Positions 1 to 24,953 of a stretch of DNA of 36,940 nucleotides are shown here, one piece after another. The notes beneath the pieces were generated by a model. It made no database searches. It saw only the letters and a list, made by a program, of their open reading frames with translations, and was not told the DNA's origin. Source of the stretch: Bacilli bacterium. Its GTDB lineage: Bacteria > Bacillota_I > Bacilli_A > RFN20 > CAG-826. Location of the stretch: positions 1 through 36,940 of the forward strand of contig JAILRR010000097.1 in assembly GCA_024698065.1 (NCBI GenBank), read 5' to 3'. The position numbers were made by a program, and so were the translations under genes. Each line of letters opens with the position of its first letter. Position 1 is the stretch's first letter.

Positions 1-5
1 ACGGA

Positions 6-581
6 ATGGTTGAAACAAATGACCATAAATTCATCTTCATCAAAAGGCATAACAAAGTGTCCATCGCTAAGAACACATGGCAGACCTCAATTGGAGCGTC
101 TTTGAAAACCATATACGCTTTAAACGAAAACAAGACAGTGGATACCTCTAGCATCAAGAACGCGATGATCGAGGAGATGATCCACGAATTCAATCTTAAG
201 AATCTCAAGAATCTTAAGGAAAAAGAGGCAGAAATGAGGGAAAAATTTTCATTCGAAGAAAATGTTCTCTATTTCTACAGAGACTTATTGGAATGTGGAA
301 AGCCTCAGTTGATGTTCCATTATGAGCTTCCTCTTAGCAGTAGCGAATTAGTGGAGGCATTCACGAGTGGACTAAAGGCTGCGAAAAAGAATAAAGACAC
401 ATTTAACTTATATTGCGATATCGATGGACATAATCTTTTACTCATTGACAGGGAAGATATGAAGAAACTGTATCTTACACCTGATGGTTTTGCTTATAAG
501 AAGAAATTCTACAAATCGGTTCCTAGTGCAGTGGCGACCATAAGGATGCTCGTTGCCAACCTTAACGGGGAGACACTTTGA
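6..581 (+). CDS. hypothetical protein, possibly truncated at the 5-prime end by the window edge
   Basis: ORF track 6..581. The frame stays open back to the window start, so the ATG at 6 may be internal. A/T-ending codon style. No motif I recognise. Confidence 0.45.
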   Translation: MVETNDHKFIFIKRHNKVSIAKNTWQTSIGASLKTIYALNENKTVDTSSIKNAMIEEMIHEFNLKNLKNLKEKEAEMREKFSFEENVLYFYRDLLECGKPQLMFHYELPLSSSELVEAFTSGLKAAKKNKDTFNLYCDIDGHNLLLIDREDMKKLYLTPDGFAYKKKFYKSVPSAVATIRMLVANLNGETL

Positions 582-602
582 GCGAATATTTTTGGGCGCT
601 AA

Positions 603-782
603 ACCAACCACTTGAAGTATGGCAATAATGTCATGTTCGTTGGATCTGATTGGCAGGGAACGGATAAGTGGAACAAGTTTGAAGAAGAACTTGCCAAAAT
701 AGGATGCAGGGTTGAGTGCCTTCCCCATGCGGATGGAATTAGCAGCACAATCCTAAGAGACAAGTTAAACAAAAAGGATTAG
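603..782 (+). pseudogene. C-terminal remnant of a TagD-like (glycerol-3-phosphate) cytidylyltransferase
   Basis: My own translation of 603-779 gives TNHLKYGNNVMFVGSDWQGTDKWNKFEEELAKIGCRVECLPHADGISSTILRDKLNKKD, with a stop at 780-782. This resembles the last third of TagD-type cytidylyltransferases (V-F-V-G-x-D-W-x-G ... LP-x-x-x-GIS-[ST]-T). An in-frame TAA at 600-602 closes the frame upstream and the N-terminal HxGH nucleotidyltransferase part is absent. Confidence 0.55.
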
Positions 783-808
783 GTTGTCTTATCTTCATAT
801 AATCTGTT

Positions 809-857
809 GAAGCGGTGGTTCCATAAGTGATTCATGGAGTGTCCGCTTCTTTTTTTT
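809..857 (+). terminator. intrinsic terminator retained downstream of the tagD-like remnant
   Basis: GAAGCGG (809-815) pairs with CCGCTTC (843-849), with additional internal pairing, followed by a T8 run (850-857). Confidence 0.6.
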
Positions 858-898
858 GTTAGAAAAACAACGTAAACATAAAAAACGTGCCAGAACTA

Positions 899-928
899 TT
901 GAAATGAGAAAGGCAAAAATGTAAGAAT
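899..928 (+). promoter_or_regulatory. candidate sigma-A promoter for the four-gene cassette
   Basis: TTGAAA (899-904), then TG-n-AAGAAT (920-928) as an extended -10 at 17-18 nt spacing, about 110 nt upstream of the ATG at 1038. Read by eye only. Confidence 0.25.
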
Positions 929-1037
929 TGTAAATGCCGTTAATCCCAATTCTTATCGCTCACTTGCAAATGGGTAGCGGTTATTTCTGAAGACGACAAA
1001 AACATATTCGGGGCGGGAAAAATTTGAGGTTAATAAA

Positions 1038-1445
1038 ATGGGTAATTACAAAAATTTAGAAACAATCAAGACGCTAGACTGTGATAATAAAATAGCTTTG
1101 AGAATTAAGTTGAAACAAATTGCTAATTTCGAATTCGAAAATTGTTATCAAGATGCAATTGTTAAACTAGGTTCTCACGTATCCCTAAGAGCGTCTGGAG
1201 CACCAACTGTCGATAATGTTGTTTTTGAAGGACAATACGCTATCACACGGCCCTTTCCAAACAATAAACTTGCTTTGGGCGATGCAAAAGATTTTTTGAA
1301 TGAGTTCGATTCTGTCATTGGTTTTACTTATAAACTCTATGAAGAACTGCAGCATCAAAAAGCAAAGGAAGAGGAAATAAAAAAACAAAAAGCTGAAGAG
1401 CGTAAAAAAGAAATAGATAAGTTGGACGATTTCTTTAACAATTAG
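1038..1445 (+). CDS. small hypothetical protein (135 aa) with a Lys/Glu-rich helical tail; first gene of the cassette
   Basis: ORF track. GAGG-containing purine-rich stretch (TTTGAGGTTAATAAA) immediately upstream of the ATG. C-terminal KAKEEEIKKQKAEERKKEIDK. Only 35 nt upstream of the ATPase gene on the same strand. Confidence 0.6.
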   Translation: MGNYKNLETIKTLDCDNKIALRIKLKQIANFEFENCYQDAIVKLGSHVSLRASGAPTVDNVVFEGQYAITRPFPNNKLALGDAKDFLNEFDSVIGFTYKLYEELQHQKAKEEEIKKQKAEERKKEIDKLDDFFNN

Positions 1446-1480
1446 TGACTTTGTTGTCAGCAAACTAAAGGCGAAACATC

Positions 1481-3694
1481 ATGATTAAGTCAATCAATTT
1501 AAAGAATTGCACTCCTTATAATTGTGCTGAAATAACCGATTGCAAGAGCATTAATTTCATCTTCGGATCTAATGGAAGCGGAAAATCAACAGTTTCGTCT
1601 TTTTTGGCAGGCGCCTCTGACGTAAGATACAGCGAATCTTCTATAGATTGGTATTCTGAGAATCATGAAACCATTTGCGTTTACAACAAAAACTTCAGGA
1701 AAGAAAATTTTAAACAAACTATTCCAGGAGTTTTCACTTTAGGCAATGGGACAATAGAAGACATCGAGAATCTAGAAAAGCTCAAAGCGGATCATGGCGA
1801 CTTACTAAAAGAGATTGCGGGTTTATCGGGTTCTTTAGACAAAAAAGAAGAAGAAATTGCAAATCGCAATCAAAAGTTTGCCGAAGATGTTTGGCGCGGG
1901 ATATTAAAAAAATATGAGGCTGATTTCCAAAAAGCGTTCGATGGTTTTAGAGGAAACAAGGAAAAGTTCCGTTTTGAATTAGAACGTAGGTTTACTGAAA
2001 AAGCCGGAAACGTCTGCGTGTTTGATGATTTAAAGAAGAGAGCCAAGGCTCTTTATTCTGGGAAAATGAGCAAGTGTCCAAGCATAGCTCTCGAAATTGA
2101 TGATTTTTGCAAAAGAATAATTGAAATAAAAAATGATCCAATATGGTCCGTTTCAATAATTGGAAACGACGATGTGGATATAGCTGCCTTGATAAAAAAA
2201 TTTGACAATTCTTCATGGGTTAACCAAGGCCTTAAGTATTTGGATGAAAACAGCAGTGTTTGTCCTTTTTGCCAGCAAGAAACTATTACAAATGACTTTA
2301 GAAAGAAAATCGAAGAGTTCTTCAATGAGGAATATTCGAATAACGTTGCTAAAATTAACAACCTGAAACAAGAGTACATAGAGTTATGCAATAAGATTAA
2401 AGCTGTGATTGGTGATTCCGTTCCGTATGGTGAACCCACAACATCCGAGGTTTCCGGTTTGGACTTCGAAGACTTTCAAAATAAGCTATTGCTTTTGCAA
2501 AGCGCGATCGAAAAAGACTCATCTGAAATAAGCAAAAAGATAAATAACCCAGAAACGAAGATCGAGATTGTTGGTATTGGAGATGAGATAGATCGACTTA
2601 AGGCGATTATTTGCGAAGCGAATGAACGTATAGATAAACACAATTTGCTTGTTGATAACCAAAAAGCAGAAGAGGAACAATTGACCAATGATATTTGGGC
2701 GTCTTGTATTCATTGGAACGAATCCATTATTAAACGGTTCCTTGAGGATTCTTGCGATCTCAAAAAAGGATTTGAAGGAATTAAGAAGGCGAGAGATGAA
2801 AAAAGAAAAAAAGCGTTGGAACTTGAGAACTTGATTGTAGAAAAAGGGAAGAGTATTACAAGCGTTCAGCCTACGGTTGATGAGATAAACAGGTCGCTAA
2901 AAGCCTATGGATTTGATAGCTTTTCCATTCAAAAAGCCGGAACTGAAGACAATTATTATTGTATAAAAAGGAAAGACGGAAGCCCTGCCGAAGGAACTTT
3001 AAGTGAAGGCGAAGAAACCTTTTTAACCTTTTTGTATTTTATGCAAATGACCAAGGGATCATCGGATCCAGAACATGTTTCAGATGAAAAGATAATAGTT
3101 TTGGATGACCCTATTAGTAGCTTGGATAGTAACATTCTTTATGTAGTGGGTGCGTTGGTAAAGAATCTAACAAAAGACATCAAAAAGGGTATAGGTAATG
3201 TCAAGCAGTTATTCGTTTTGACACACAATGTGTTTTTTCATAAAGAGGCTTCATTCATCGATGGCAGATCAAAAGAATGCGACGATGTAAATTATTGGAT
3301 TATTAGAAAAGACGAAGGAATCTCGACAATAAAAAGTTATGGGAGAAAGAACCCTATATCCACTTCCTATCAATTACTTTGGGCAGAGTTAAAAGAAGGA
3401 GGGTCTCTCATCACAATTCAAAATACGATGCGCAGAATCATCGAAAACTACTTTGGAATAATTGGCGGCAGACTTGATGAGAAATTGATTGACGGTTTTG
3501 AAACCATCGAAGAAAAGACCATCGCTAGATCTTTGCTTTATTGGATCAATGATGGTTCCCATAGCATTCCAGATGACCTCTATATTGATTCTTTTACCGA
3601 TGCGGTTCCGAAATATAAGAGCGTTTTTAAAGAGCTATTTGTTAGAAGCAACCATTTAGCTCATTACAATATGATGATGGGAATTGATGACTAG
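1481..3694 (+). CDS. AAA_13-type ABC/SMC-like ATPase with a CxxC zinc hook and a C-terminal PrrC/RloC-like (HEPN-type) anticodon-nuclease-like domain
   Basis: Walker A GSNGSGKST (aa 29-37). Long helical insert containing CPFC (aa 261-264, nt 2261-2272). LSEGEE signature. IIVLDDPISSLD Walker B/D-loop. C-terminal MRRIIENYF (R651/R652, E655) and GSH (H694), matching the Arg/Glu/His layout of PrrC/RloC nucleases. Confidence 0.8.
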   Translation: MIKSINLKNCTPYNCAEITDCKSINFIFGSNGSGKSTVSSFLAGASDVRYSESSIDWYSENHETICVYNKNFRKENFKQTIPGVFTLGNGTIEDIENLEKLKADHGDLLKEIAGLSGSLDKKEEEIANRNQKFAEDVWRGILKKYEADFQKAFDGFRGNKEKFRFELERRFTEKAGNVCVFDDLKKRAKALYSGKMSKCPSIALEIDDFCKRIIEIKNDPIWSVSIIGNDDVDIAALIKKFDNSSWVNQGLKYLDENSSVCPFCQQETITNDFRKKIEEFFNEEYSNNVAKINNLKQEYIELCNKIKAVIGDSVPYGEPTTSEVSGLDFEDFQNKLLLLQSAIEKDSSEISKKINNPETKIEIVGIGDEIDRLKAIICEANERIDKHNLLVDNQKAEEEQLTNDIWASCIHWNESIIKRFLEDSCDLKKGFEGIKKARDEKRKKALELENLIVEKGKSITSVQPTVDEINRSLKAYGFDSFSIQKAGTEDNYYCIKRKDGSPAEGTLSEGEETFLTFLYFMQMTKGSSDPEHVSDEKIIVLDDPISSLDSNILYVVGALVKNLTKDIKKGIGNVKQLFVLTHNVFFHKEASFIDGRSKECDDVNYWIIRKDEGISTIKSYGRKNPISTSYQLLWAELKEGGSLITIQNTMRRIIENYFGIIGGRLDEKLIDGFETIEEKTIARSLLYWINDGSHSIPDDLYIDSFTDAVPKYKSVFKELFVRSNHLAHYNMMMGIDD

Positions 3695-3765
3695 AATCCA
3701 TATGAGATTAAACCAAGAATACGCCTTCGATCTTAGTTGGCGCATTAAATGGTAAGTCAGCAGAC

Positions 3766-5055
3766 ATGGTAAGGAATAGCTACTATAAATGCGATTTTTG
3801 CGACTGCACCGTGAGATTTAGGTCTCAAATAGGTGCTTTTAATATTCCTATAAACGTCTATTGTCCTAAGTGCAATTGCCACATCTCGGGTGTGATCGAC
3901 ATTGGTGATGATCCACAATCAATCAGAGAGCATGTCATAGGCGCTAGCGAAATAGAAAGCGATGAGGCTGAGTATACTTTAGAGCTTTCAACCGAATTCC
4001 TTGTTGATAAATGCAAAAAGAACAGCAAGAGCGACAAGCCAGAATTGACTATGTTCCTTAGGAGCGGACCTCTTGATGAGAAAAGAACTGAAAGAAGGGT
4101 AGAGCTTTTGACTTTTGTTCGTGACGCCGATTATTGCATAAACACCATTGAGAATCTGTACAACTTGCTTGAGAACGACGATGTTGATTTGATAAGAAAA
4201 TATTTCTTAGAGAGCAGCAACGGTTTTGTTAATTCATTTAGAGAAAACATCGATTATAACAAAGTGATTAATAAATTAGACGCTATGCTAGCGGTCAAGC
4301 ATTTTGTTAACTCTCTATTAACTCCTTTGATGCCGGAAGGCGTGTTTAGAAAGTTATATGACATCATGAACGTAAAGGTTAGGGGAATTGTCCAAAGTCA
4401 TACGTCTGCATTCATGGATTTTTTAAAACAGTTGGATGGCGATAGCGTCGAAGCATATCTATACAGAATTCCTAAATTTATAGTCGACTATATAAAAGTG
4501 GTTGGGCAACTCATCCCATTGTATGACAACTATTCAAAGTTTGATTCGATCGATCTAAATAAAAGTGGTATTTCAACTATGTCGGTTGATGAAATGGTGG
4601 TTATTTATAAGAAAGGGTATGAGCTCCTTTGCGATTCCATTGATCTAATCGTTGCCCTTAATAATATTAGCCATCACGGGACATACGATAACTTTGGTTG
4701 TGGAAAAGTTGACTTCGACAAAAAACTGAATGGATATCCTTCAAAATACGTAAAGTATCAAGAAGTAACAAACAACGATTATGATTTGTTTGATGGTTTA
4801 AGGGGCAAGTTAAACAATATTATAAGAAATGCCGAGGGCCACAATTCGATCAGAATTGACGGACTAAATCAAAACATCACTTTCACAAACAAGCGCAAAG
4901 GGAATGTTGACACATATACAATTTCATTTTTGGAGTTCGGTAAAAACTGCATAGATTTGTTTGTGGCAATTCTACATATTTGGGAATTCTATTACCAAAC
5001 GATAAAGTTCAAATCCGTTTTTATAGATGAGATGACGTTGAATTATGGAAAATAG
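3766..5055 (+). CDS. zinc-ribbon protein with a C-terminal HEPN-like R-x4-H motif (429 aa)
   Basis: CxxC (C9, C12) and CxxC (C33, C36) at the N-terminus. IIRNAEGHNSIR places R354-N-A-E-G-H359 (nt 4825-4842) in a predicted helical C-terminal part. Same strand, 71 nt after the ATPase gene. Confidence 0.65.
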   Translation: MVRNSYYKCDFCDCTVRFRSQIGAFNIPINVYCPKCNCHISGVIDIGDDPQSIREHVIGASEIESDEAEYTLELSTEFLVDKCKKNSKSDKPELTMFLRSGPLDEKRTERRVELLTFVRDADYCINTIENLYNLLENDDVDLIRKYFLESSNGFVNSFRENIDYNKVINKLDAMLAVKHFVNSLLTPLMPEGVFRKLYDIMNVKVRGIVQSHTSAFMDFLKQLDGDSVEAYLYRIPKFIVDYIKVVGQLIPLYDNYSKFDSIDLNKSGISTMSVDEMVVIYKKGYELLCDSIDLIVALNNISHHGTYDNFGCGKVDFDKKLNGYPSKYVKYQEVTNNDYDLFDGLRGKLNNIIRNAEGHNSIRIDGLNQNITFTNKRKGNVDTYTISFLEFGKNCIDLFVAILHIWEFYYQTIKFKSVFIDEMTLNYGK

Positions 5056-5087
5056 AATAGAATTTTTGGTAGTGTAGAGAGTTTATA

Positions 5088-5615
5088 ATGGGCGATTTCT
5101 TAGATTTCATTTCAAATTTCATAGAAATAACTGGCGATTCTGTAGCAGATTCAATAATTCTCGCCGTCATTGGCGTGGTTGCCTTTTTAGTTGCTTTTGG
5201 GATTGTTGGGATGATATTTGACGCTTTAGGAATCTACGACTCAGATTTGATGAGCGGTGCCCATTGGACCATAAGAATAATCGTCTTCCTTGGCCTATCG
5301 TTCGTCTGCATTCTAATGGCTAAGTTCATAAAATGGCTTTTCAGTTTTCAGTGGTGGATCTATCTCATCGCAGGATTGTTGCTTGTAGGCACAATAATCC
5401 TTACGTTTGTGATTAGGCACAAACTAATGAAGAAAAAAGCGGAACAAGCAAAGAAAGAAAATGACAACAGAACCATTGAAGCAAAAAGCATAGATAAAGA
5501 TCATTGCCCGAGATGCGGTGGGTTGCTAGTTAAACGTCATGGACCATACGGTGATTTCTATGGATGTGAGAATTACTCGAGAAGCAATTGTAGATACACA
5601 AGAAAGTTTAAATAG
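5088..5615 (+). CDS. 3-TM membrane protein with a C-terminal topoisomerase-type C4 zinc finger
   Basis: Three hydrophobic segments (SIILAVIGVVAFLVAFGIVGMIF, WTIRIIVFLGLSFVCILMAKFI, WWIYLIAGLLLVGTIILTFVI), then a basic linker and CPRCGGLLVKRHGPYGDFYGCENYSRSNCRY (C140, C143, C160, C168), which matches the zf-C4_Topoisom pattern. Confidence 0.75.
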   Translation: MGDFLDFISNFIEITGDSVADSIILAVIGVVAFLVAFGIVGMIFDALGIYDSDLMSGAHWTIRIIVFLGLSFVCILMAKFIKWLFSFQWWIYLIAGLLLVGTIILTFVIRHKLMKKKAEQAKKENDNRTIEAKSIDKDHCPRCGGLLVKRHGPYGDFYGCENYSRSNCRYTRKFK

Positions 5616-5681
5616 AGGCTTTTTATTTGCCTTCTCTTTCGTTCTTTCACATACTCTTATTGGAAAGACCGGAATGCAGGC

Positions 5682-6479
5682 ATGAAAAGAAATAGATTTT
5701 TCGGTAAATATTACAAGTTCATCAGTGATGATTCTTCTTTTTCTTTTGCGGTTATCATAAGTACCGCTAACGAAGGTGATATGCTTCAAGTCATAACATC
5801 TCATAAAGCGTTCCTCATCAATAACACTAAATCAGTAGAGGTCAAAGGAAGCATAATCACCTTCGATATCAATCAAGATGATCTTGTGATCAAAGGGGAA
5901 TTAACACTTGGAGAACTTCATCCACTTAAGAAGAAAGTGATGGGTCCATTCACATATCTCCCAATGGAATGTAGGCATGAGATATATTCCATGTACCATG
6001 AATTGAAGGGAACACTTCTGATTAATGGCAAAGAAGTATATTTCAACAAAGGCAGGGGATATATCGAAGGTGACAGTGGCACTAACTTCCCAAAGAAATA
6101 TGTTTGGTATAACAGTGTCACCGAAGATATAACCGCGACCTTCGCTTTAGCGAGCATCCCTCTTTTCGGTTTCATCCATTTCACTGGGATCCTTTGCTTC
6201 ATAAAGACAAAGGACAAGGAATACAGGCTCTGCACATATAATGGAGCAAAGCTAAAGAAGATCTCCGAAGACGAAATCATCATCAAGAAAGGGAAGTATT
6301 CCTTTGTCCTTAATATCAAGAATGAAGGAGGACATCTCCTTAAAGCACCGGTGAAAGGTGATATGGTGAGGTACATAAAGGAAAACCTTAATGTACCAAC
6401 CTCATTCAGACTCTTGAAAAAGGATGAGACTCTTATAGAAGTGAATGATCCTATATCGTCACTCGAATATATGTGGTGA
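5682..6479 (+). CDS. tocopherol-cyclase-like family protein (bacterial homologue of unknown function)
   Basis: N-terminal FFGKYYKF (compare FEGWYFK) and GYIEGDSGTNFPKKYVWYNS (compare GYxEKDWGxSFPxxWxWxQxN), recalled from the tocopherol cyclase family. Codon style is closer to the core genes. Confidence 0.5.
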   Translation: MKRNRFFGKYYKFISDDSSFSFAVIISTANEGDMLQVITSHKAFLINNTKSVEVKGSIITFDINQDDLVIKGELTLGELHPLKKKVMGPFTYLPMECRHEIYSMYHELKGTLLINGKEVYFNKGRGYIEGDSGTNFPKKYVWYNSVTEDITATFALASIPLFGFIHFTGILCFIKTKDKEYRLCTYNGAKLKKISEDEIIIKKGKYSFVLNIKNEGGHLLKAPVKGDMVRYIKENLNVPTSFRLLKKDETLIEVNDPISSLEYMW

Positions 6480-6670
6480 CACTGGCTGTTTTCAATAAAG
6501 CTTTCGCTTCTTTTGAGTCTGTTAACCAGGTTATTAATTCGTTTTAACTGAAATTTAACAACAAACTATGCCTCTATTTTCTTAATTAGGTATAATTAAG
6601 GGGATTGCTAGACATTTCTAGATAGAAAACGCTGTTATCTCTAAACATTTGAAAAAGGAAAAAAATACAT

Positions 6671-8119
6671 ATGGAACAAGAAACTTCAATCGTTAAAGAA
6701 GAAAAAGGTTTTACCTTTGCCGACTTCTGGTATGTCATCAGAAAGTTCTGGATTCTCATTGCCGCTATAACTCTCGTGGCAACGGCGGCAGGAACCATCT
6801 ATTCGTTTGCCAGCACCAAACCAAGCTATAGATCGTCCTCAAACGCCATCGTGGCGGTTGAAAGCGAAACCCAAGCCGGAACCCAGGATGTCGATTACGA
6901 TAAGTCCTTACGCGTGGTCAACACCGTCGGCGAATTCGTTCATCAAGAATTCGTCTTGGAAAGCGTTGCCAAGGAATATAACGTCAGCGTCGGTTATCTC
7001 GCTGGCGGAGTCAGCGCTTCCGTATCTTCCTCTTCCTTCATCATCACCGTCAGTTTCGTTGACGCTGATCCCGATAACGCTCAGAAATATTGCGACGCCA
7101 TCGTCAAGAGCCTCATCAAAGTCTGCGAGAACGATGAAGCCGTCAAAAAACTTAAGGTTACAGTATCGCAAACAAGCCCTGCCTCCCCAGGTGCTTTGAA
7201 CACTTCCAGCAAGAAACTCTATATCATCGCTGGCCTAGGCGGTGGTTTGGTCCTTGGCGTTATCGCCGCCTTCATTGCTGAAGCAGTGGCCAATAAATTC
7301 TCTTCCAAGAGTGATGTCGAAGACCACTTCCCAGATATTGCCGTCATCGGTAAGTTCTATCAGAACAAGTGCATGGAAGATAGAAACAAGAAGTCCCATA
7401 GAAGAAGAGCCGCTAAACTCGTTGGCAACACCGTCCGTGAGCTTGAGCCGTATAACACCCTCCTTTCCAATATCTATTACGCGAACCCAGAGAACCCATA
7501 TAAAGCGGTCCTCGTCACCTCAACCGAGCCGGAAGACCTTAAGACCACAACGGTCGCTAACCTCGCTTACTGCGCTGCCACCAATGGCAAGAAGGTCGTC
7601 CTCATCGACTTCGATGTCAGAAAACCAACCATCCATCGTACCTTCAGAGTCGAGAAAGAAAACGGTCTCATCGACTTCATCGGTGGAACTTCCAAAGAGG
7701 AAGACATCATCAAACACAGTGAGTCTGGCGTTGATATCATCACCCCAGGTCTCAATGTCGTTAACCCAGTCGTCCTCATCCAGTCTGAGAAGATCGCTAG
7801 CCTCATCAAATCCCTCAAAGAGAAATACGACTATGTCTTCATCGACACCCCACCAGTCGGCGTCTGCAACGACGCTCTCGTTTTAAGCAAAGTCGCTGAT
7901 GGTGTCGTCTTCAATATCGCTCTTGCGATAACGAAGAAATCCGCTGCCGAGGAATCGGTCAAATCCCTTAGACAATATGGGGCGAAGATCATTGGCCTTA
8001 ACCTCACCAAATATCCTCTCCACGCCAAAAACGAGAGAAACGCTTCCTATTATTACAACTATTACAACACCGATTCTTCCGAAGGGGAGAAAGAGGCTGT
8101 TACCGCTGAAAAGAAGTAA
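6671..8119 (+). CDS. Wzz-type chain-length determinant fused to a BY-type protein-tyrosine kinase (CpsC/CpsD-like) with an atypical Walker A
   Basis: N-terminal TM (FWILIAAITLVATAAGTIY) and a second TM (LYIIAGLGGGLVLGVIAAFIA). Kinase part has VLIDFDVRKP (Walker A-prime), VFIDTPPV (Walker B) and a C-terminal Tyr cluster SYYYNYYN. Walker A reads TEPEDLKTT rather than the usual PGEGKST. Confidence 0.85.
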   Translation: MEQETSIVKEEKGFTFADFWYVIRKFWILIAAITLVATAAGTIYSFASTKPSYRSSSNAIVAVESETQAGTQDVDYDKSLRVVNTVGEFVHQEFVLESVAKEYNVSVGYLAGGVSASVSSSSFIITVSFVDADPDNAQKYCDAIVKSLIKVCENDEAVKKLKVTVSQTSPASPGALNTSSKKLYIIAGLGGGLVLGVIAAFIAEAVANKFSSKSDVEDHFPDIAVIGKFYQNKCMEDRNKKSHRRRAAKLVGNTVRELEPYNTLLSNIYYANPENPYKAVLVTSTEPEDLKTTTVANLAYCAATNGKKVVLIDFDVRKPTIHRTFRVEKENGLIDFIGGTSKEEDIIKHSESGVDIITPGLNVVNPVVLIQSEKIASLIKSLKEKYDYVFIDTPPVGVCNDALVLSKVADGVVFNIALAITKKSAAEESVKSLRQYGAKIIGLNLTKYPLHAKNERNASYYYNYYNTDSSEGEKEAVTAEKK

Positions 8120-8125
8120 CCGAAG

Positions 8126-8794
8126 ATGATTGATATCCATAACCATATCCTCTATGGAGTTGATGATGGCTCCAAAGACCTTGAGATGTCTTTAGCCATG
8201 CTCAAAGAGGAAATGGATAATGGGGTCAGTCTCATCTATCTCACTCCGCATCAGAACAAGAACACTTTGACTGGGACCATCCTTAGGGACAGGTACCAGT
8301 CTTTTTTGTCTGAAGTCAAAGAGAAGGGGATCGATATGGATATCCGCTTAGGCGCGGAAATCTATTATTACCCTGGACTCAAACAAGACCTCATCTCTGG
8401 CAAAGCCCTCACGATGGATGATTCCAAATACGTCCTTGTCGAATTCTCAACGAGAACGGAAACCAATATCTCTGAGATCATCTATGAGCTTAGTGTGGCA
8501 GGATATAAGCCAATCGTCGCCCATATCGAAAGATATCCTTATCTCAAGAAAGCCGATTATTTCGATATCAAAGATGCAGGGGCGCTCATCCAAATTAATG
8601 CAGGCTCTTTTTCTCATTTCTCCATGAGAGGAATCATCAAATATCTTCTTAAGAATGATCTTGTCGATTATGTTGCTTCGGATGCGCATGATCCAATAAA
8701 GAGAAAAGTCGATTTCTCTTTCGTTCATGGCTACATCAAAAAGAAATATCCTTCTTTTTATACAAAGCTGATTGAGATGAAGAAGATTGGCTAA
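8126..8794 (+). CDS. PHP-family Mn-dependent protein-tyrosine phosphatase (CpsB/YwqE type)
   Basis: MIDIHNHILYGVDDGSKD N-terminus, IVAHIERY, and ASDAHD near the C-terminus. Starts 6 nt after the kinase gene. Confidence 0.85.
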   Translation: MIDIHNHILYGVDDGSKDLEMSLAMLKEEMDNGVSLIYLTPHQNKNTLTGTILRDRYQSFLSEVKEKGIDMDIRLGAEIYYYPGLKQDLISGKALTMDDSKYVLVEFSTRTETNISEIIYELSVAGYKPIVAHIERYPYLKKADYFDIKDAGALIQINAGSFSHFSMRGIIKYLLKNDLVDYVASDAHDPIKRKVDFSFVHGYIKKKYPSFYTKLIEMKKIG

Positions 8795-8886
8795 GAACGC
8801 TCTTTATTTGCTCTAATAAGCCAAAATATTGCAACTATAGAATCATATTAGGTTTTGTAGATAGATGATTTGTGCACGATGAAAAC

Positions 8887-8948
8887 GCAACGCAAAATTT
8901 TTCGTTGCAGATACATTGCAAATTTGAAACGAAAGAATCTCTTTCGTT
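8887..8948. promoter_or_regulatory. two operator-like inverted repeats in the 338-nt leader of the HTH-glmM gene
   Basis: GCAACG (8887-8892)-N10-CGTTGC (8903-8908) and AACGAAAG (8928-8935)-N5-CTTTCGTT (8941-8948). The related octamer ATTGCAAC occurs at 8828-8835 and 9101-9108, and ATTGCAAA at 8915-8922. Confidence 0.3.
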
Positions 8949-9132
8949 GCATTTCGTGTCCTGAAAAGCTTTTTAGAGAACCTCTCACCCTTTATATCCT
9001 TAATATTAATATATTCATTCTATGTAAAAATTTGTTACCGCAACTACTATTTACATTCCTTTTGCCAAGAAAAACCTGTAGAATATCGTTAATTGAGTAA
9101 ATTGCAACCTAGAGTTGACGAGGGAAACAGCT

Positions 9133-10773
9133 ATGACAATTGCAGAAAAATTAATCCATCTCAGGATGAATGCCTCTTTGTCCCAACTTGATTTGGCCAA
9201 TGCTCTCAAAGTGAGCCGCCAATCAGTCTCCAAATGGGAAAAAGGCGAATGCGTTCCATCCCTCGACAAAGCCTTAGAGCTTTGCTCTCTTTTCAAGATC
9301 AGCATCGATGAACTCGTCAATGAGTCCATCGTCATCAACAAAAAGGAATCCAAGAAAGAAGAAGTGCCAGAAGAAGGGAATCATTATTTCGGCACTGACG
9401 GCTTTAGAGGCGAATCGAACAAAAACCTCACCGTCATGCACGCTTTCCAGACTGGAAGATTCCTTGGCTGGTATTTCAACCAACCTCAGTTCGCTAAGCT
9501 CCATGCTGGGCAAGAGAGACCGAGGATCTGCATCGGCAAAGACACAAGAAGGTCCTCATACATGTTTGAGTACGCTTTATGCGCAGGTATCACTAGCAGT
9601 GGCGCCGATGCCTATATCCTCCATGTCACCACGACCCCAAGTGTCTCTTATATCACTAGAAGCGAGCACTTCGACTGTGGTGTCATGATCACCGCCTCCC
9701 ATAACATCTTCTACGATAACGGAATCAAGGTTCTTAACCACAATGGCGAGAAGATGGAAGACGATGTCGCCCATTTGATTGAATGCTATATCGACAAGAA
9801 GTTCGACAAGCTTGGACTTCCTGGTGCGACAGACCTTCCATATGCCGAGCGAGAGAACATCGGCAAAGTCATCGACTTCGAAGAAGGAAGAGCGAGATAC
9901 ACCGGTTACCTTATTTCAACTATCCCAACCTCATTTAGAGGTTTGAGGATCGCTCTTGATACCGCTAACGGCGCTTCCTGGGCCATCGCCCCTCAGGTCT
10001 TCAAGACCTTAGGCGCCGATATCACCGTCATCGGTGATGAGCCAAATGGCCTTAACACCAACAAAGACTGCGGCTCAACCCATATCGAGAAACTCGTCGA
10101 ACTCGTCAAAGAAGGCAAGTTCGATGTCGGATTCGCTTTCGATGGCGATGCCGATAGATGCTTAGCCGTCGACAAAGACGGTTCCCTCATCGATGGCGAC
10201 AAGATCATGTATATCCTTGGTCTTAGACTCAAGAGACATAGAACGCTCAAGAATGATGTCGTTGTCTCAACCATCATGTCTAACAGCGGTTTCGCCAAAG
10301 CTCTTGAGGATGTTGGCATCAAAACCGTCCAGACCGCAGTCGGTGACAGATTCGTCTATGAAGAGATGATGAAAAATGATTACTGGATCGGTGGAGAACA
10401 AAGCGGTCACATCATCCTCAGAAAATACCAGAATACAGGTGATGGCATCTTGACTGCTCTCAAACTCACAGAAGAGATGCTCGATACTAAAAAATCCTTA
10501 GGAGAGCTTTCTAGTGCCGTCCACGAATTCCCACAACAGCTTGAGAACGTTCGCGTCATTGACAAGAAAGCCGTCCTCGCTGACAAAGAGATTGTTGAGA
10601 AAGTCGAGAAGATCAACAAAGAGATCAAAGGCAAAGGCCGTATCCTTCTCCGTGAAAGTGGAACCGAGCCAGTCGTCCGTATCATGCTTGAGTCCGATGA
10701 CAAAGAGATGAACCAAAGATACATCGACACCATCAAGGCCATGATCAAAAAGGGAGGATACATCGGTGAGTAA
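9133..10773 (+). CDS. glmM: phosphoglucosamine mutase with an N-terminal XRE-family helix-turn-helix domain (fusion)
   Basis: The ATG at 9133 has GAGGGA 7 nt upstream, whereas the track start at 9115 is a TTG. aa 1-60 is HTH_XRE-like (LSQLDLANALKVSRQSVSKWEKGECVPSLDKALELCSLFKISIDELV). This is followed by GlmM motifs YFGTDGFRG, ITASHNIFYDNGIK, FDGDADR, GGEQSGH and RESGTEPVVR. Confidence 0.85.
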   Translation: MTIAEKLIHLRMNASLSQLDLANALKVSRQSVSKWEKGECVPSLDKALELCSLFKISIDELVNESIVINKKESKKEEVPEEGNHYFGTDGFRGESNKNLTVMHAFQTGRFLGWYFNQPQFAKLHAGQERPRICIGKDTRRSSYMFEYALCAGITSSGADAYILHVTTTPSVSYITRSEHFDCGVMITASHNIFYDNGIKVLNHNGEKMEDDVAHLIECYIDKKFDKLGLPGATDLPYAERENIGKVIDFEEGRARYTGYLISTIPTSFRGLRIALDTANGASWAIAPQVFKTLGADITVIGDEPNGLNTNKDCGSTHIEKLVELVKEGKFDVGFAFDGDADRCLAVDKDGSLIDGDKIMYILGLRLKRHRTLKNDVVVSTIMSNSGFAKALEDVGIKTVQTAVGDRFVYEEMMKNDYWIGGEQSGHIILRKYQNTGDGILTALKLTEEMLDTKKSLGELSSAVHEFPQQLENVRVIDKKAVLADKEIVEKVEKINKEIKGKGRILLRESGTEPVVRIMLESDDKEMNQRYIDTIKAMIKKGGYIGE

Positions 10774-12234: not shown

Positions 12235-13569
12235 ATGAAGTACATTGAAGAGATCATCGAAAAAGTCAAAGCCGAAAACCCAGATCAACCTGAGTTCCTC
12301 CAAGCCGTCAAGGAAGTCCTTGAGAGCTTAGAGCCAATCATCTCCATGAACGAAGAGAAGTACCGTAGCCAAAAGCTTCTCGAGAAACTCGTCGTCCCTA
12401 ATAACATCGTCAAGTTCGATGTCAAATGGATGGATGACAATGGAGTGGAGCAAACCAACAAAGGATATCGCGTCCAGTTCAACAACGCCGTCGGTGTCTA
12501 TAAAGGTGGCCTCCGCCTTCATCCTTCCGTCAATCTCTCCATCCTTAAGTTCTTAGCCTTTGAGCAATGCTTCAAGAATGCCTTAACCGGTTGCCCAATG
12601 GGCGGTGGCAAAGGAGGATCTGACTTTGATCCTAAAGGCAAGAGCGAAGCTGAGGTCAAACGTTTCTGCATCGCCTTCATGGATAAGCTCTATCCACATA
12701 TCGGCGTTGGTGTCGATGTCCCAGCCGGCGATATCGGTGTCGGCGGAAGAGAGATCGGCTTCATGGCCGAGGAATATAAGAAACAGACCGGTACCTTAGG
12801 CGGTGTCCTTACTGGCAAACCTCTTTCGATGGGTGGTTCCTTATGCAGAACCGAAGCGACCGGTTATGGTCTTGTCTACTTCGCCGAAGAGATGCTTAAG
12901 AAGAGGCATGATTCCTTTGAAGGAAAGACTGTCGTCGTTTCTGGTTCAGGAAACGTCGCCATCTACGCGATTGAGAAGTGTGAGCAGCTTGGTGCGAAAG
13001 TAGTGGGCTGCTGCGATTCCTCTGGTTGGATCTATGACAAAGATGGCATCGATGTCGCTCTCTTGAAAGAGATCAAAGAAGTGAAAAGAGAAAGACTTTC
13101 TTCATACGCTGCGGCTAGACCAAGCGCTGAATATCACGAAGGCAAAGGCGTCTATTCCATCAAGTGTGACATCTATATGCCATGCGCCACTCAGAATGAA
13201 CTTGATCTTGAAGGTGCTAAACTCCTCGTCAAGAATGGCTGCTTCGCTGTCTGCGAAGGTGCGAACATGCCAACAACTAGAGAAGCAACCGAATACCTTC
13301 TTGCCAACAAAGTCTTATTCACCCCAGGCAAAGCTTCTAATGCCGGCGGTGTCTCTTGCTCCTACCTTGAGATGGTTCAGAACGCCAATAACGAATCCTG
13401 GCCATTCGAGAAGGTCGATATGAAGCTCAAAGAGATCATGGTCAACATCTTCCATAACGTTGATGAGGCCGCAAAAGAAGTAGGGCAGGAAGACAACTAC
13501 GTTGTCGGCGCGAACATCGCTGGCTTCAAGATCATCTATGACGCCATGTCCAAAAAAGGACTTCTCTAA
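12235..13569 (+). CDS. gdhA: glutamate dehydrogenase (hexameric GdhA family)
   Basis: I chose the ATG at 12235 (MKYIEEIIEKVK...) because the track start at 12166 lies inside the terminator hairpins. Motifs include GCPMGGGKGGSDFDPKG and a GSGNVA dinucleotide fold. Confidence 0.9.
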   Translation: MKYIEEIIEKVKAENPDQPEFLQAVKEVLESLEPIISMNEEKYRSQKLLEKLVVPNNIVKFDVKWMDDNGVEQTNKGYRVQFNNAVGVYKGGLRLHPSVNLSILKFLAFEQCFKNALTGCPMGGGKGGSDFDPKGKSEAEVKRFCIAFMDKLYPHIGVGVDVPAGDIGVGGREIGFMAEEYKKQTGTLGGVLTGKPLSMGGSLCRTEATGYGLVYFAEEMLKKRHDSFEGKTVVVSGSGNVAIYAIEKCEQLGAKVVGCCDSSGWIYDKDGIDVALLKEIKEVKRERLSSYAAARPSAEYHEGKGVYSIKCDIYMPCATQNELDLEGAKLLVKNGCFAVCEGANMPTTREATEYLLANKVLFTPGKASNAGGVSCSYLEMVQNANNESWPFEKVDMKLKEIMVNIFHNVDEAAKEVGQEDNYVVGANIAGFKIIYDAMSKKGLL

Positions 13570-13585
13570 TCAAACACAAAAAAGG

Positions 13586-13616
13586 AATCCCCTGATGAAT
13601 CAGGGGATTTTTTTCT
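13586..13616. terminator. bidirectional intrinsic terminator between the convergent gdhA and lipoprotein genes
   Basis: AATCCCCTGA (13586-13595)/TCAGGGGATT (13600-13609), a 10-bp stem with a 4-nt loop. An A-run lies upstream and a T-run downstream. Confidence 0.8.
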
Positions 13617-13726
13617 TGCCTCTTGTTCTATATTGATGGGTGTCATTCAACTTGAATGTACAGACTGTACAAACAAGTTTGAGAACCATGAATAATCGCC
13701 CTATTGTGTTCGTGAGGCAAAGACCT

Positions 13727-14152
13727 TCATGAGACGTAATAAAAAAGGCTTAGATCTTTGACGGCAATATCGTCGAAATCAACGAATTGAGTGCATTCAA
13801 AATCATAGAAGAAGGAGTTGATATAATATGCCCCGGTGCCTCCCAACACTCTTGATAAATCGGGGTTGAGCAATCTATCGTAAGTCGCGGTTTCCCCTCT
13901 TCTTATGATTGGTTCTCCATTTTTGACGGTGAACGTGGTGTCGAACCTCGCGCCTTCGGGAATATTCGTTTGTCTATTCATAAAAACTTCATAGACATAC
14001 ATCGTGGACTCGCCTTCGTATGAGGTTGCGGCAACGCTTTCGAAAGAAGAGGAAGATTCGCTTTTTAAAAGGCCGGACTCTTCCGCAACACTAGGGGCGG
14101 GGGCGCATGCTGAAAGGATTGCCGACGTTGCAATCAATAGTGCCTTTTTCAT
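13727..14152 (-). CDS. lipoprotein of unknown function
   Basis: I chose the ATG at 14152 (MKKALLIATSAILSAC, lipobox LSAC) with GAAGGAA upstream. The track start at 14185 adds 11 residues that do not look like signal peptide. Confidence 0.65.
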   Translation of the reverse strand: MKKALLIATSAILSACAPAPSVAEESGLLKSESSSSFESVAATSYEGESTMYVYEVFMNRQTNIPEGARFDTTFTVKNGEPIIRRGETATYDRLLNPDLSRVLGGTGAYYINSFFYDFECTQFVDFDDIAVKDLSLFYYVS

Positions 14153-19255: not shown

Positions 19256-19466
19256 GGAAACAAGGCGATGTTTTCTTAACACACATCGCAACGTCTTGAT
19301 GCAACTGTCGTGATTTCGTCAAAGTCTCAAAAGAAATCACTTGGAAACACAATAATTGAAAGATTTTGCCTAATGCAAAATCCAATTGGTCCGGATAGAT
19401 AACGCATTTAATCATCATTGATTTTTTTTCAATAAAAAATTATCGTAAAAAAAGGTGGTAAAACGA

Positions 19467-21644
19467 ATGAAAAATTTTCTAGTTACATTGATTGTCTTCT
19501 CCTTGCTTTCGAGCGCGAATTTACACATTGAAAAGAAGACAAATCGAATCAACAACGATTACGAGGCCTGCCTTAAAGCTGAGACTCCAGAGAAATCTAT
19601 GCTTGATGCACAGCATGTTCCCGGTGAGCTCATTGTCACGGTGGATGCCAAAACCAGTCGCGACGTCATTTGTGGAACTAAGAAATCGGAGGAATTAATT
19701 GAAGACTTCAACTGCGATGAATACGAATGTCTTTCTCAAGAATTGATAGACTCTAGATGTTCTTTGAGCGTCAACCGAGATATTCATGTGTCATATTTGA
19801 TTCGCTATGAGGATAAAACGGATGAACATTTGTATGATGCTTTATGCAATATTAAGAAAAACAGCTCGGTTGATGCAGTCGAACCGAATTACATTCGTTT
19901 GAGCAATTCTGTCGATAATCCAGTTGACGAGTATTATTCAGAACAATGGGGATTAAGAGCGATAAACGCTCCTGCTGTTTGGCATAGATATGGAACGGGT
20001 TCGTACGAAAAAACGCGCATTGGGATTCTAGACGATGGTGTATCTCCACACGAGGACTTGTGTATTGACGCTTCTTTAAGCCGTGACTTTTCGGCTGGCG
20101 GGGATAGGTACGGCATTGGGCATGGCACTCATGTCGCCGGAATCTGTGGAGCAATTGGCGATAACACCAAGATAGAAGGAGGTGTTGAAAGCGGCGTTGG
20201 TGTTGTTGGTGTTTGCCAAAAAGCAACGGTCGTTGATTTAAAGGTCGCCAGCAAGGTATGGATTAAAGACAATACCATACCTGCAGGAGGCTATTATAGC
20301 GATCGTTCAAGCGATTCGACGGTACTTAAAGCAGTAAATTATGCGATTTCGAAATGGGAAACGTCTCAGCGTATTTCTGTCTTGAATTATTCGTATTCTG
20401 GATACTCCAATAAATATGTCACTCTTTTTGGCGATTTCACAGTAAGAAACCCAGTAAATAGAAACATCCTTTTGTCATTTAGATCGTTCCCTGGAACGGT
20501 TGTCTGGAGCGCTGGTAATGATGGAGAGGCTCGTGGGGATAATGGTTTTAGGTACTGCCCTAATTTGATTTCTGTCGGTTCGATAGACGAAACTGGAGAG
20601 ATAAGTGGTTTTTCTAATTGGGGGCCGTCGGTAAACATTTATGCCCCTGGCGGGAATATCTTTAGCACATTCAGAGACAACCAATATGTGGCGAAAAACG
20701 GCACTTCGATGGCCGCTCCGTTTGTTTCCGGTGTCGCCGCTTACCTTTATTCTAAGTTTCCCGGCATCACAGCAAGACAGGTAAAAGATGCCATAGTGGA
20801 GTCTGTTAATTACGAAAAAGTTATCCATGCTGGCAATGGAATATTGGAACCGATTAAGAAACTTGATTTTTTGGCAGCATACAATAAGGCCTATGGGTTG
20901 TTTAACGAAACCGATAATTATCCAATAAAACTTGAAATGCTTAACTGCGAGGGCGACAAGTGGAAAATACTAATTCAAAATACTGGCAAAAGCACTTTGA
21001 AAATCGCATATCCGGAATCCAACTGTTCGGAACAGGATGTTACCGTGTTTTCATCAAACAATTGCAAAACACTCTCCTTGAGTGGCAAATCATCAAAAAC
21101 CATAGAAATAACATATGACAAAAATAAGGGGATGTGTTTTCCTGTTGGCGTTTACTCAAACGGCGTCAGGAAAATAACCTATCTTTATTGTTCTTCTGTG
21201 GCTTGGAACGTCGACACTGATTTCCTACTCTTTGATATGAATTACACAACAAGCTCTGTGCCAGGAAAACACCTTAACAGGGCTCCACAACCTGGTTTGG
21301 ATTTTGAGATAAAGTCATCGAGAATCAACTGGTTTGTAAGGGATTGGAAAATAACGATCAAAAACAACATTAACGTGGCTGTCGATGTGATGTACAACAG
21401 CAAGATGTGTTTTTATGGCGACGGGCTTGACTGGAAGAATCTTGCCGACGTTGAACAAATGTCTCTTTCTTCATACGGAACCTCATCGGAAATATGGATT
21501 AATGCTAATGGCACGGCGGATGCTATCGCCATGTGTCTTGTCTATATCGATGATTACGGTCTTAAAAGAGGATATGTTTCCGTTGCCAATGGTATCAAAG
21601 ACAATGGGCATGGTACACTTGGTCATAAGACGATCTCTCTTTAA
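19467..21644 (+). CDS. secreted subtilisin-like (S8) serine protease with two C-terminal repeat domains
   Basis: I chose the ATG at 19467 (MKNFLVTLIVFSLLSSANL signal peptide) with AAAGGTGG upstream. Catalytic motifs are IGILDDGV (Asp), HGTHVAGI (His), SAGNDG (oxyanion Asn) and GTSMAAPFVSG (Ser). Two related C-terminal modules of about 110 aa carry KWKILIQNTG and DWKITIKNNI. Confidence 0.85.
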   Translation: MKNFLVTLIVFSLLSSANLHIEKKTNRINNDYEACLKAETPEKSMLDAQHVPGELIVTVDAKTSRDVICGTKKSEELIEDFNCDEYECLSQELIDSRCSLSVNRDIHVSYLIRYEDKTDEHLYDALCNIKKNSSVDAVEPNYIRLSNSVDNPVDEYYSEQWGLRAINAPAVWHRYGTGSYEKTRIGILDDGVSPHEDLCIDASLSRDFSAGGDRYGIGHGTHVAGICGAIGDNTKIEGGVESGVGVVGVCQKATVVDLKVASKVWIKDNTIPAGGYYSDRSSDSTVLKAVNYAISKWETSQRISVLNYSYSGYSNKYVTLFGDFTVRNPVNRNILLSFRSFPGTVVWSAGNDGEARGDNGFRYCPNLISVGSIDETGEISGFSNWGPSVNIYAPGGNIFSTFRDNQYVAKNGTSMAAPFVSGVAAYLYSKFPGITARQVKDAIVESVNYEKVIHAGNGILEPIKKLDFLAAYNKAYGLFNETDNYPIKLEMLNCEGDKWKILIQNTGKSTLKIAYPESNCSEQDVTVFSSNNCKTLSLSGKSSKTIEITYDKNKGMCFPVGVYSNGVRKITYLYCSSVAWNVDTDFLLFDMNYTTSSVPGKHLNRAPQPGLDFEIKSSRINWFVRDWKITIKNNINVAVDVMYNSKMCFYGDGLDWKNLADVEQMSLSSYGTSSEIWINANGTADAIAMCLVYIDDYGLKRGYVSVANGIKDNGHGTLGHKTISL

Positions 21645-21662
21645 GGTGAAAACCAAGTTCCT

Positions 21663-24600: not shown

Positions 24601-24953
24601 TTCTGTTGCTAGCTACTTTTATTGCTTCTTCCGTAGATTACAAGAAGAAGGAAGTCGGCATTATAAGGTGCCTAGGCGGAAGAGAAAAAGACGTATTCTT
24701 GATCTTTGCTTCCGAAGGCATGGTAATCACTATGGCATCCGTCATCTTGTCGGTTGTGCTTTCCCTAATTGAATGCTTCTTCATCAACCGTTTTGCCTTT
24801 GGAGAGACCTTTGGCGCGAATTTGCTCTATTATGGTCCGCTAAATGTGCTGACGGTCTTGATTTGCTCGATCGTTATTGCCTCGCTTGCTACTTTCCTTC
24901 CGATCCACAAAAGAACGAAAATGGCACCTTCTGTCGCCTTACGTAAGGAATAA
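21663..24953 (+). CDS. fused ABC ATPase / FtsX-type permease (MacB/FtsEX architecture) with an unusually large extracytoplasmic domain
   Basis: GKSGSGKST, LSGGQKQRVAIARAL, ILADEPTGALD and VSHD in aa 1-220. TM1 is near aa 262-287. About 665 non-hydrophobic residues follow. Then three C-terminal TMs (from about aa 956) with an FtsX-like layout. Confidence 0.85.
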   Translation: MFILRNLIKEYPGGRGNRPIVALNIGYLSLPESGMVFVVGKSGSGKSTLLHLLGGLDKPTSGDLLIHGKNASSFSERDLDSYRNSCVGFVFQDFGLIDEFTVRQNIGFALELQSEKSDEEKIASVLNSLEMPGFDDRRIDTLSGGQKQRVAIARALVKNPSVILADEPTGALDEESGNGVLSILRKLSKEKLVVIVSHDTEAARKYADRIIELKDGRIVKDTVDSEEKEADEERANLTLRKSRIPFLKGLKIGLSAAIHKPLKLVTCSMLVAFALSFFGLVTTLTFFDDARARTGVATTMHCESDLFQKNAIFEVTNSEYDYRSGQTVKSEKTTETAGVMSSDQDVAKLNASSKTGLDFAGVFGKDLYSFQYKNGSDLEDPLVFDQLHSFLSFSGFIDCGETYLARNGMSMLFGTYPTASNEIAISKYHSEILAKSNPELFDGEIKNVIGTELSIDFKNYTLNSDKSLFTITGIVDTGEVNNYYLERYEKGNHTLDSKDIEMLTEYLRGSFHCLGYVSSVFAETFHDVFAEGLSSLYSHKGVYFAGIELEENESSIRPSADSSLGFVLPKYTDMEQYSFYAPDGESLTFEEPASNEIYVDGSYYEEKTYRKLKDFLLSVFVCVHDAFFEYKMLPEADSYFASTENLAFFNHALSLFESFDLDSFELAIKSDRFENNVKLVINSFAKLSFERMYIKYVLASMNSLNASGHFGIEDLSLDSEFMSQYGLKVDNCGLSEEFDSEVFDGCYEYIKSHPSLRLFARKALCYELFLSLDKSNTYKDIYEKVSLMVLNGNGDAVSQSDWDDLLSAFDSLCSDEENLEFIEMPFAKNNLVDYERAYSDRPFEYSIECPHDLFYVNHLGVKGKLTVKGYYLTSGRKDGGAQLYFANEDFLRSLTIAPSYVNTKTYSTDYKDVDGGKYNYVITKTDFSFRQVKEICMKGEGFEYRFTNALMYRVDYFITVMWTMCMVFAILAGVLGFFAVLLLATFIASSVDYKKKEVGIIRCLGGREKDVFLIFASEGMVITMASVILSVVLSLIECFFINRFAFGETFGANLLYYGPLNVLTVLICSIVIASLATFLPIHKRTKMAPSVALRKE

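Follow-up and report, generated by a model that had tools for sequence, protein, structure and literature searches.

The DNA analysed here is the 36,940-nt contig JAILRR010000097.1 of a Bacilli bacterium (assembly GCA_024698065.1; the whole stretch is referred to as the window), and the subject of the analysis is a group of four adjacent open reading frames (ORFs) near its left end, designated g1 to g4. All four lie on the + strand and are separated by gaps of 35, 71 and 32 nt. A first-pass annotation, which gave these coordinates, directions and gaps exactly, proposed that the four genes, built around an ATPase resembling the anticodon nucleases RloC and PrrC, make up a single undescribed anti-phage system. 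The comparative analysis points elsewhere: with a probability of roughly 0.8, the first 6.5 kb of the window (approximately positions 1-6500) is a low-GC mosaic defence island bordering a capsule locus, in which g1 to g4 are evolutionarily independent and not one system. The genes and their principal motifs are as follows.

1038-1445, + strand: g1, 135 amino acids (aa) with a lysine- and glutamate-rich (K/E-rich) tail; found in no conserved gene set.
1481-3694, + strand: g2, 737 aa, ABC/Rad50-like ATPase fused to a putative anticodon-nuclease domain (AAA_13; PADLOC PDC-S06).
2261-2272, + strand: CPFC of g2 (aa 261-264), mid-insert candidate zinc hook, invariant in nine of nine aligned homologues.
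3431-3562, + strand: putative nuclease triad of g2, R651-x3-E655-x38-S693-H694, which fits the RloC pattern.
3766-5055, + strand: g3, 429 aa, N-terminal zinc ribbon and helical body, uncharacterised family (profile search and AlphaFold).
3790-3873, + strand: zinc ribbon of g3, C9-x2-C12 ... C33-x2-C36 (alignments A1 and A2).
4825-4842, + strand: R354-N355-A356-E-G-H359 of g3, a HEPN-style R-N-x3-H motif and candidate active site (alignments).
5088-5615, + strand: g4, 175 aa, approximately three transmembrane (TM) segments and a C-terminal Top1-type C4 zinc ribbon (Pfam; TM-like segments).

The occurrence of each gene and of its partners was compared across other genomes. For g3, 12 contexts were available (the window, L001, L002/3, L004/5, L006/7, L008, L009, L021/22, L023-25, L026 and the plasmid loci L069 and L070), and an AAA_13 gene was found to adjoin g3 only in the window and at L006/7. 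These two represent one lineage, since L006/7, where g3 is 76% identical, is colinear with window positions 1474-5774 at 71.5% DNA identity and has the same left border (697-779 in the window). At L008, where the g3 relative is the closest (84%), g3 adjoins g4 while the gene upstream encodes a GajB/UvrD-like helicase, and at L004/L005 (g3 70% identical) the DNA homology to the window begins and ends exactly at the ends of g3 (3766-5055, compared with L004). In six further contexts (L001, L002/3, L009, L021/22, L023-25 and L026) g3 stands alone amid defence-type genes, namely SduA_C (Shedu), AbiH, methyltransferases, DUF6577/AbiEii, GmrSD, RiboL-PSP-HEPN, PycTM, YfbU and ThsA_Macro, and its relatives on plasmids of Enterococcus and Lactococcus occur singly, beside recombinase genes.

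The other three genes gave a similar picture. Relatives of g2 were identified at 10 loci (L013-L020, L071 and L072, from eight GTDB genomes and two plasmids), and g1, g3 or g4 was present at none of them; the relative in Shewanella ANA-3 adjoins the M and S genes of a type I restriction-modification (R-M) locus, the classic setting of RloC ('restriction-linked ORF'). Neither g1, g2 and g3 nor ORF5, the ORF that follows g4 in the window, was found near full-length g4 homologues in approximately 25 loci, and no AAA_13 gene, g3 or g4 was found at the three g1 loci (L010-L012). Because the partners are not co-conserved with the ATPase in other genomes, an outcome that the first-pass annotation had itself listed as refuting its proposal, g1 to g4 are read as independent modules that are neighbours in one island lineage, and the proposal of a single undescribed four-gene system was not upheld.

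Several observations weigh against this reading and are set beside it here. No terminator-like site was found between g1 and g4, which together with the short gaps makes co-transcription of the four genes plausible at this locus, and they are possibly co-transcribed. L006/L007 retain the g2-g3-g4-ORF5 order at 69-77% amino acid identity, and selection for linkage in this lineage would fit the persistence of g2-g3-g4 while the proteins of the window and L006 diverged by 23-31%. Adjacency of g3 and g4 recurs in a third context, L008, and in L004 and L024 a different single-TM protein directly after g3 hints at a possible membrane partner. In addition, the defence role proposed for g3 and g4 is one of guilt by association, and the HEPN label of g3 is at motif level only, since neither Foldseek nor profile searches assign the protein to HEPN.

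The short gaps, the lack of internal terminator-like sites, the common direction and the gene order retained in L006/L007 would also suit a lineage-specific multi-gene system, in which g2, g3 and g4 (with or without g1) supply an RloC-like sensor ATPase, a second RNase-type effector and a membrane component. Such a system was considered very unlikely. The arrangement exists in one lineage only, with g3 lacking AAA_13 in the 10 other contexts, g2 relatives lacking g3 and g4 at all 10 loci, g4 lacking g2 and g3 at approximately 25, and g1 missing even from the colinear locus L006; moreover, the g2 family is handled by PADLOC as a single-gene candidate, and RloC was active alone on expression in E. 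coli (Davidov and Kaufmann, PMC2610378).

A smaller unit, a two-gene module of g3 (cytoplasmic zinc-ribbon/RNxxxH protein) and g4 (membrane zinc-ribbon partner) that adjoins RloC but is independent of it, was judged improbable. In each of three contexts, one of which is L008 with its different upstream gene, the two genes are neighbours separated by 32 nt, and the proteins directly after the g3 homologues in L004 (9330-10034, 234 aa) and L024 (8424-9140, 238 aa) are homologous to each other (39% identity) in islands that are otherwise unrelated; both proteins have one N-terminal TM anchor and matched nothing in any library searched. However, the three contexts belong to the relatives that are closest (76-84%), possibly at a single shared chromosomal site, and the g4 family (at least 380 clusters) exceeds the close g3 family (26 homologues) more than 10-fold in size. 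Furthermore, g3 was present at none of the approximately 25 g4 loci, and no membrane protein adjoins g3 in at least five of its contexts or in the plasmid copies.

Taken as an independent module of the mosaic island, g2 is, by its sequence, an RloC-type zinc-hook ATPase-nuclease of known kind. It matched Pfam AAA_13 (E 3.1e-156, aa 15-720), PADLOC PDC-S06 (PDLC04890; E 4.9e-240, aa 1-736 against profile positions 1-725 of 732) and phrog_2801, a phage protein family of unknown function (E 8.2e-80, aa 5-734), while a sequence search of the PDB with g2 gave no match. The ATPase motifs comprise Walker A (GSNGSGKST, 29-37), LSEGE (507-511), IIVLDDPISSLD (538-549) and LTHN (around 580), and the ATPase is predicted from sequence to be split by an insert at approximately aa 90-500 in which 35% of residues are charged. 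The motifs are conserved in nine homologues at 32-69% identity from Vibrio, Shewanella, Bacillus, Faecalibacterium and other taxa, as are RRI[IL]E and [GN]SH, which cover the putative triad.

RloC has been defined as a protein of 658-897 aa, approximately twice the size of PrrC, with a set of ABC motifs (Walker A, signature, Walker B/D-loop and switch His), a helical coiled-coil insert that has CX2C at its centre, and, at the C-terminus, R-X3-E-X36-52-H with Ser frequently placed before the His (PMC2610378). Comparison of g2, known here from its sequence, with RloC was made by these published criteria and by profiles. It was assigned to the RloC type on the basis of its length, ABC motifs, CX2C and R-E-H residues, all of which agree with the published description and are conserved in the nine homologues. 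Like the RloC proteins of Geobacillus kaustophilus and Acinetobacter baylyi, g2 belongs to the larger size class (737 aa versus 658-897 aa), carries the ABC motifs, a CxxC-centred insert and a C-terminal R-X3-E-X38-S-H, and matches AAA_13 over its full length; its relatives likewise stand alone or lie beside type I R-M genes. All of the g2 motifs listed in the first-pass annotation are present, at the residues it gave, and its description of an RloC/PrrC-type zinc-hook ATPase-nuclease is supported by AAA_13, PDC-S06 and the published definition. It had also allowed that profile searches might place the gene set in an already named system, and this proved to be the case for g2 (PDC-S06 and the RloC definition) but not for the set as a whole.

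Assignment of g2 to PrrC, the E. coli tRNA-Lys anticodon nuclease, was also considered. The C-terminal third of g2 (aa 467-720) fits the PADLOC PrrC model (E 1e-9) and the R-E-H triad is common to both; however, PrrC is a protein of 341-416 aa without a zinc-hook insert and is always located within a type Ic R-M locus (PMC2610378), whereas g2 has 737 aa, carries the insert and has g1 and g3 as neighbours. The assignment was rejected on the length, the insert and the lack of any hsd gene within positions 1-9000. In a separate observation, the RloC-type gene of the Vibrionales strain SWAT-3 (L018/L019, 6001-7554 and 9850-10506) was found to be split, with residues 1-522 and 519-734 encoded approximately 2.3 kb apart; as the same split arrangement is present on two contigs, this gene has probably been interrupted by a mobile element.

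RloC is described as a tRNase that excises the wobble nucleotide, under the control of its zinc hook, its ATPase and DNA. By homology, the Rad50-like ATPase head of g2, with its helical insert and CPFC zinc hook, would keep the C-terminal R-E-H nuclease silent until DNA damage or phage DNA ends release it, upon which cleavage of tRNA anticodon loops would stop translation and lead to abortive infection. Both this activity and its trigger are carried over from work on the Geobacillus and Acinetobacter RloC proteins, while the motifs themselves were observed here.

The third gene, g3, belongs to an uncharacterised family. Among 5.8 billion proteins 26 close homologues were identified, and an exhaustive profile search returned 759 clusters (50% identity clusters) at E <= 1e-3 and 144 at E <= 1e-30, with nearly all members full-length at 420-480 aa. 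All four cysteines of the zinc ribbon are invariant in alignment A1, while in A2, which comprises 72 diverse family sequences with identity down to approximately 18%, C9, C12 and C33 are invariant and C36 is conserved in at least 90%. R354, N355 and H359 are invariant in both alignments, and E286 is nearly so in A2. The RNxxxH motif is present in 165 of 174 family members and is kept in the homologue from an E. faecalis plasmid, and a C-terminal SEC-C tail is present in 46 of the 174. The database gene call for g3 in the window (P0001) has 387 aa and starts at an internal Met, thereby dropping the zinc ribbon; all homologues back the 429-aa start.

The AlphaFold model of g3 (predicted local distance difference test, pLDDT, 90.6; predicted template modelling score, pTM, 0.91) consists of a beta-rich zinc-ribbon N-domain and a long helical body. 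With the full model, Foldseek searches yielded no significant match, the best E being 0.28 in the PDB and 0.06 in BFVD, and the C-terminal half modelled alone (pLDDT 84.4) gave a best E of 0.54 against the PDB, with no HEPN entry; as Foldseek is liable to miss small helical domains, this failed fold search lowers the likelihood of HEPN membership without excluding it. There was no match for g3 in Pfam, PADLOC, NCBIfam or PHROGs, nor in phage collections including IMG/VR, a PDB sequence search with the g3 profile yielded noise only (E > 0.3), and a scan of GTDB genomes with g3 found no relatives. When relatives of g3 were searched against Pfam and PADLOC only zinc-ribbon and SEC-C fragments were recognised, apart from sporadic weak matches of single members to Cas13a and CARF-HEPN models (E approximately 4e-4). 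Matches of g3 relatives to the PADLOC models PDC-S12 and E2 were discarded, as they are confined to the C-terminal SEC-C tail of approximately 25-60 aa and do not cover the body of the protein.

The published HEPN signature is R-x4-6-H with a polar residue after the R, and fusions of zinc ribbons to HEPN domains exist (Anantharaman et al., PMC3710099). In its R-N-x3-H motif and its occurrence as a single gene in defence islands, g3 resembles the HEPN RNases of abortive infection (AbiD/F Abi_2, RiboL-PSP-HEPN, and DUF4145 with zinc-ribbon fusions), but it differs from them in having no match to a HEPN profile and none to a HEPN structure by Foldseek. The zinc ribbon and R-x4-H motif that had been noticed in g3 from its sequence are indeed conserved, whereas the HEPN assignment attached to them found support in neither profiles nor fold.

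That R-N-x3-H and the zinc ribbon are strictly invariant in 72 sequences with identity as low as approximately 18% argues for catalysis over mere binding. Judged from motif and context, g3 most likely encodes a self-contained abortive-infection RNase, which would act as a stand-alone effector; the proposal draws on the invariant zinc ribbon and R-N-x3-H together with the exclusive residence of the family in defence islands and Firmicute plasmids. The plasmid distribution could also be that of a non-immune accessory of plasmids and mobile elements, for example a nucleic-acid-binding regulator riding in variable regions, since relatives of g3 are carried on 35 plasmids next to recombinases, a relaxase, Fic and an AcrIIA9-family gene, and since no fold or profile links the protein to a nuclease. 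A role of this kind is nevertheless regarded as unlikely, given that recognised defence genes are the immediate neighbours in nine of nine chromosomal g3 contexts outside the window, that the motif invariance points to catalysis and that the family is absent from phage collections. Abi_2 is also among the defence neighbours of g3 and g4 homologues.

Two further observations were made at g3 loci. At L021 (6449-6940) and L022 (4672-5202), the gene immediately upstream of the g3 homologue encodes a YfbU domain, which is the domain present in Kamadhenu, a single-gene system of lactococci. In the E. faecalis plasmid pJF1A-4353-3 (L069, 1105-1884) the g3-family copy lies approximately 4 kb from a gene with the annotation of an AcrIIA9-family Cas9 inhibitor, placing offence and defence in one accessory region.

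More tentatively, and as a possibility rather than an expectation, g3 may found a new single-gene abortive-infection family of approximately 760 clusters, distributed over Firmicute islands and plasmids of Enterococcus, Lactococcus and Bacillus. Its members would combine a zinc ribbon with a helical fold absent from the PDB and use R-N-x3-H as a metal-independent RNase site, as a divergent HEPN-like branch and possibly within a wider family that includes SEC-C systems such as Rugutis. Rugutis is the closest published description to the g3 family. It is a single-gene, Abi-like (abortive-infection-like) system of lactococcal plasmids (pUCCL633_059, 359 aa) with an N-terminal SEC-C and a confident AlphaFold model without a PDB match (PMC11381338), and it is triggered by phage c2's large terminase (PMC11381338, PMC12184496; Grafakou 2024, Mosterd 2025). 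When the two were compared by the published description of architecture, the g3 family was found to be alike in its presence on Firmicute plasmids, its single-gene organisation, the SEC-C carried by a quarter of its members and the lack of a known fold. It differs in its size (420-480 aa), its N-terminal zinc ribbon and the C-terminal position of SEC-C where present, with an N-terminal SEC-C in none of 174 members. No L. lactis plasmid match was found to g3 or to its L. garvieae relative. A truncated SEC-C match in Enterococcus lactis was examined as a short Rugutis-like form and rejected, being a remnant cut by a mobV gene.

The fourth gene, g4, was correctly described at the outset as a membrane protein with three TM-like segments (aa 14-51, 57-87 and 83-114) and a Top1-type zinc finger, the latter recognised by Zn_ribbon_Top1 (PF01396) at aa 139-175 (E 3.7e-10; 39.9 bits against a cut-off of 32). 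Elsewhere its homologues lie after BREX PglZ-BrxL, before ThsA, or beside SMODS, Schlafen-type helicase or FRG/DUF2971 genes. From these associations, g4 is regarded as a membrane protein that is common in defence islands and not specifically linked to g2 or g3, its putative defence role being assigned by guilt by association. The idea that g4 and ORF5 are merely the resident flank of the island was set aside as at best a local explanation, because g4 homologues occur elsewhere in unrelated defence contexts without ORF5 or capsule genes. At L027 and L037 (7001-7552) a g4-family gene was observed approximately 25 nt downstream of brxL, the upstream ORF of L027 being a 184-aa BrxL-like fragment, and at L046 (6989-7528) a SMODS gene lies between brxL and the g4-family gene; a g4-type protein as a recurrent BREX-adjacent accessory is a possibility.

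By comparison, g1 is an orphan. It had no match in Pfam, PADLOC or NCBIfam and a single weak match in PHROGs (phrog_16904, E 0.023), and only two homologues were identified among the 5.8 billion proteins, in the three loci noted above.

The low-GC block that contains g1 to g4 extends beyond them and also covers the ORF at 6-581 and ORF5. The features at its borders are as follows.

697-779, + strand: left border of the insertion site, at the end of a short 56-aa ORF (612-782); conserved in L006.
809-857, + strand: terminator-like hairpin GAAGCGG...CCGCTTC followed by T9, read in the sequence; ends the upstream unit.
5682-6479, + strand: ORF5, a 265-aa low-GC protein in the right-hand part of the island; 76% amino acid identity in L006.
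6671-8794, + strand: resident flank of Wzz/tyrosine kinase and CpsB capsule-regulation genes (Pfam); G+C content at third codon positions (GC3) 0.58 and 0.49.

GC3 was 0.28, 0.36, 0.41 and 0.42 for g1, g2, g3 and g4, respectively, compared with 0.55-0.66 in most other genes tested across the window, and the compositional contrast, the look of horizontal acquisition and the defence-related character reported for this block were thereby confirmed. The terminator that had been placed at 809-857 can likewise be read in the sequence as a hairpin and T9, and was missed by a consensus scanner, probably for its long loop. The promoter-like site reported with it is present at 899-928 but carries no statistical weight, as such sites are rarer here than in shuffled sequence (the 7-kb region has 10, whereas shuffles give an expectation of 18.7). 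Scans of positions 1-7000 for Rfam families and repeats found no RNA family and no flanking att-like repeats.

Window positions 697-779 align with L006 2174-2259 at 75.6% DNA and 67% amino acid identity, and the L006 segment sits just downstream of polysaccharide genes. The two differ in what lies between this border and g2: the window carries g1, while L006 carries SatD, DUF3307 and a pair formed by a putative cyclase and PycTM; the window and L006 therefore represent one chromosomal site in related genomes with different cargo. On the right, the flanking genes matched Wzz plus AAA_31 and CpsB_CapC (E 5e-59). ORF5, which gave a weak Tocopherol_cycl match under the curated cut-off, is kept alongside g2-g4 in L006 only. 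A low-GC defence island would appear to have entered the genome of a gut Firmicute at the margin of a capsule/polysaccharide locus.

Additional variable segments were observed in L006 and in the window. The ORF5 homologue of L006 has its first 31 codons in duplicate (9919-10011 and 13094-13885), one copy on each side of an inserted block of approximately 3 kb, which encodes a 909-aa leucine-rich-repeat (LRR)/collagen-like protein and looks like a target-duplicating insertion. A second stretch of lower GC3 (0.42-0.45) is located in the window at 19455-24953, where a gene for a 729-aa subtilase (Peptidase_S8) is followed by one for a 1096-aa fused ABC-ATPase/FtsX permease, and may be another acquired module. 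Variable defence cargo within or bordering capsule/polysaccharide loci was also seen on gut-metagenome Firmicute contigs more widely (the window, L001, L004, L006, L010, L021 and L024), the cargo types being Shedu-like, AbiH, Pycsar-like, ThsA-like, retron-like reverse transcriptase and RloC; this suggests that capsule/polysaccharide loci are integration hotspots for defence genes.

A new four-gene system centred on RloC would, if true, have been notable, but the comparative evidence does not back it. The region is instead a clean example that tight spacing within a defence island is no proof of one system, and its g2 is a new gene of the RloC type, from a gut Firmicute. The new item is the g3 family, which is widespread on Enterococcus plasmids and has a confident model unlike solved structures, together with a putative catalytic dyad that is invariant. 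Variable defence cargo is repeatedly nested at the borders of capsule loci in gut Firmicutes, a pattern that merits a systematic survey.

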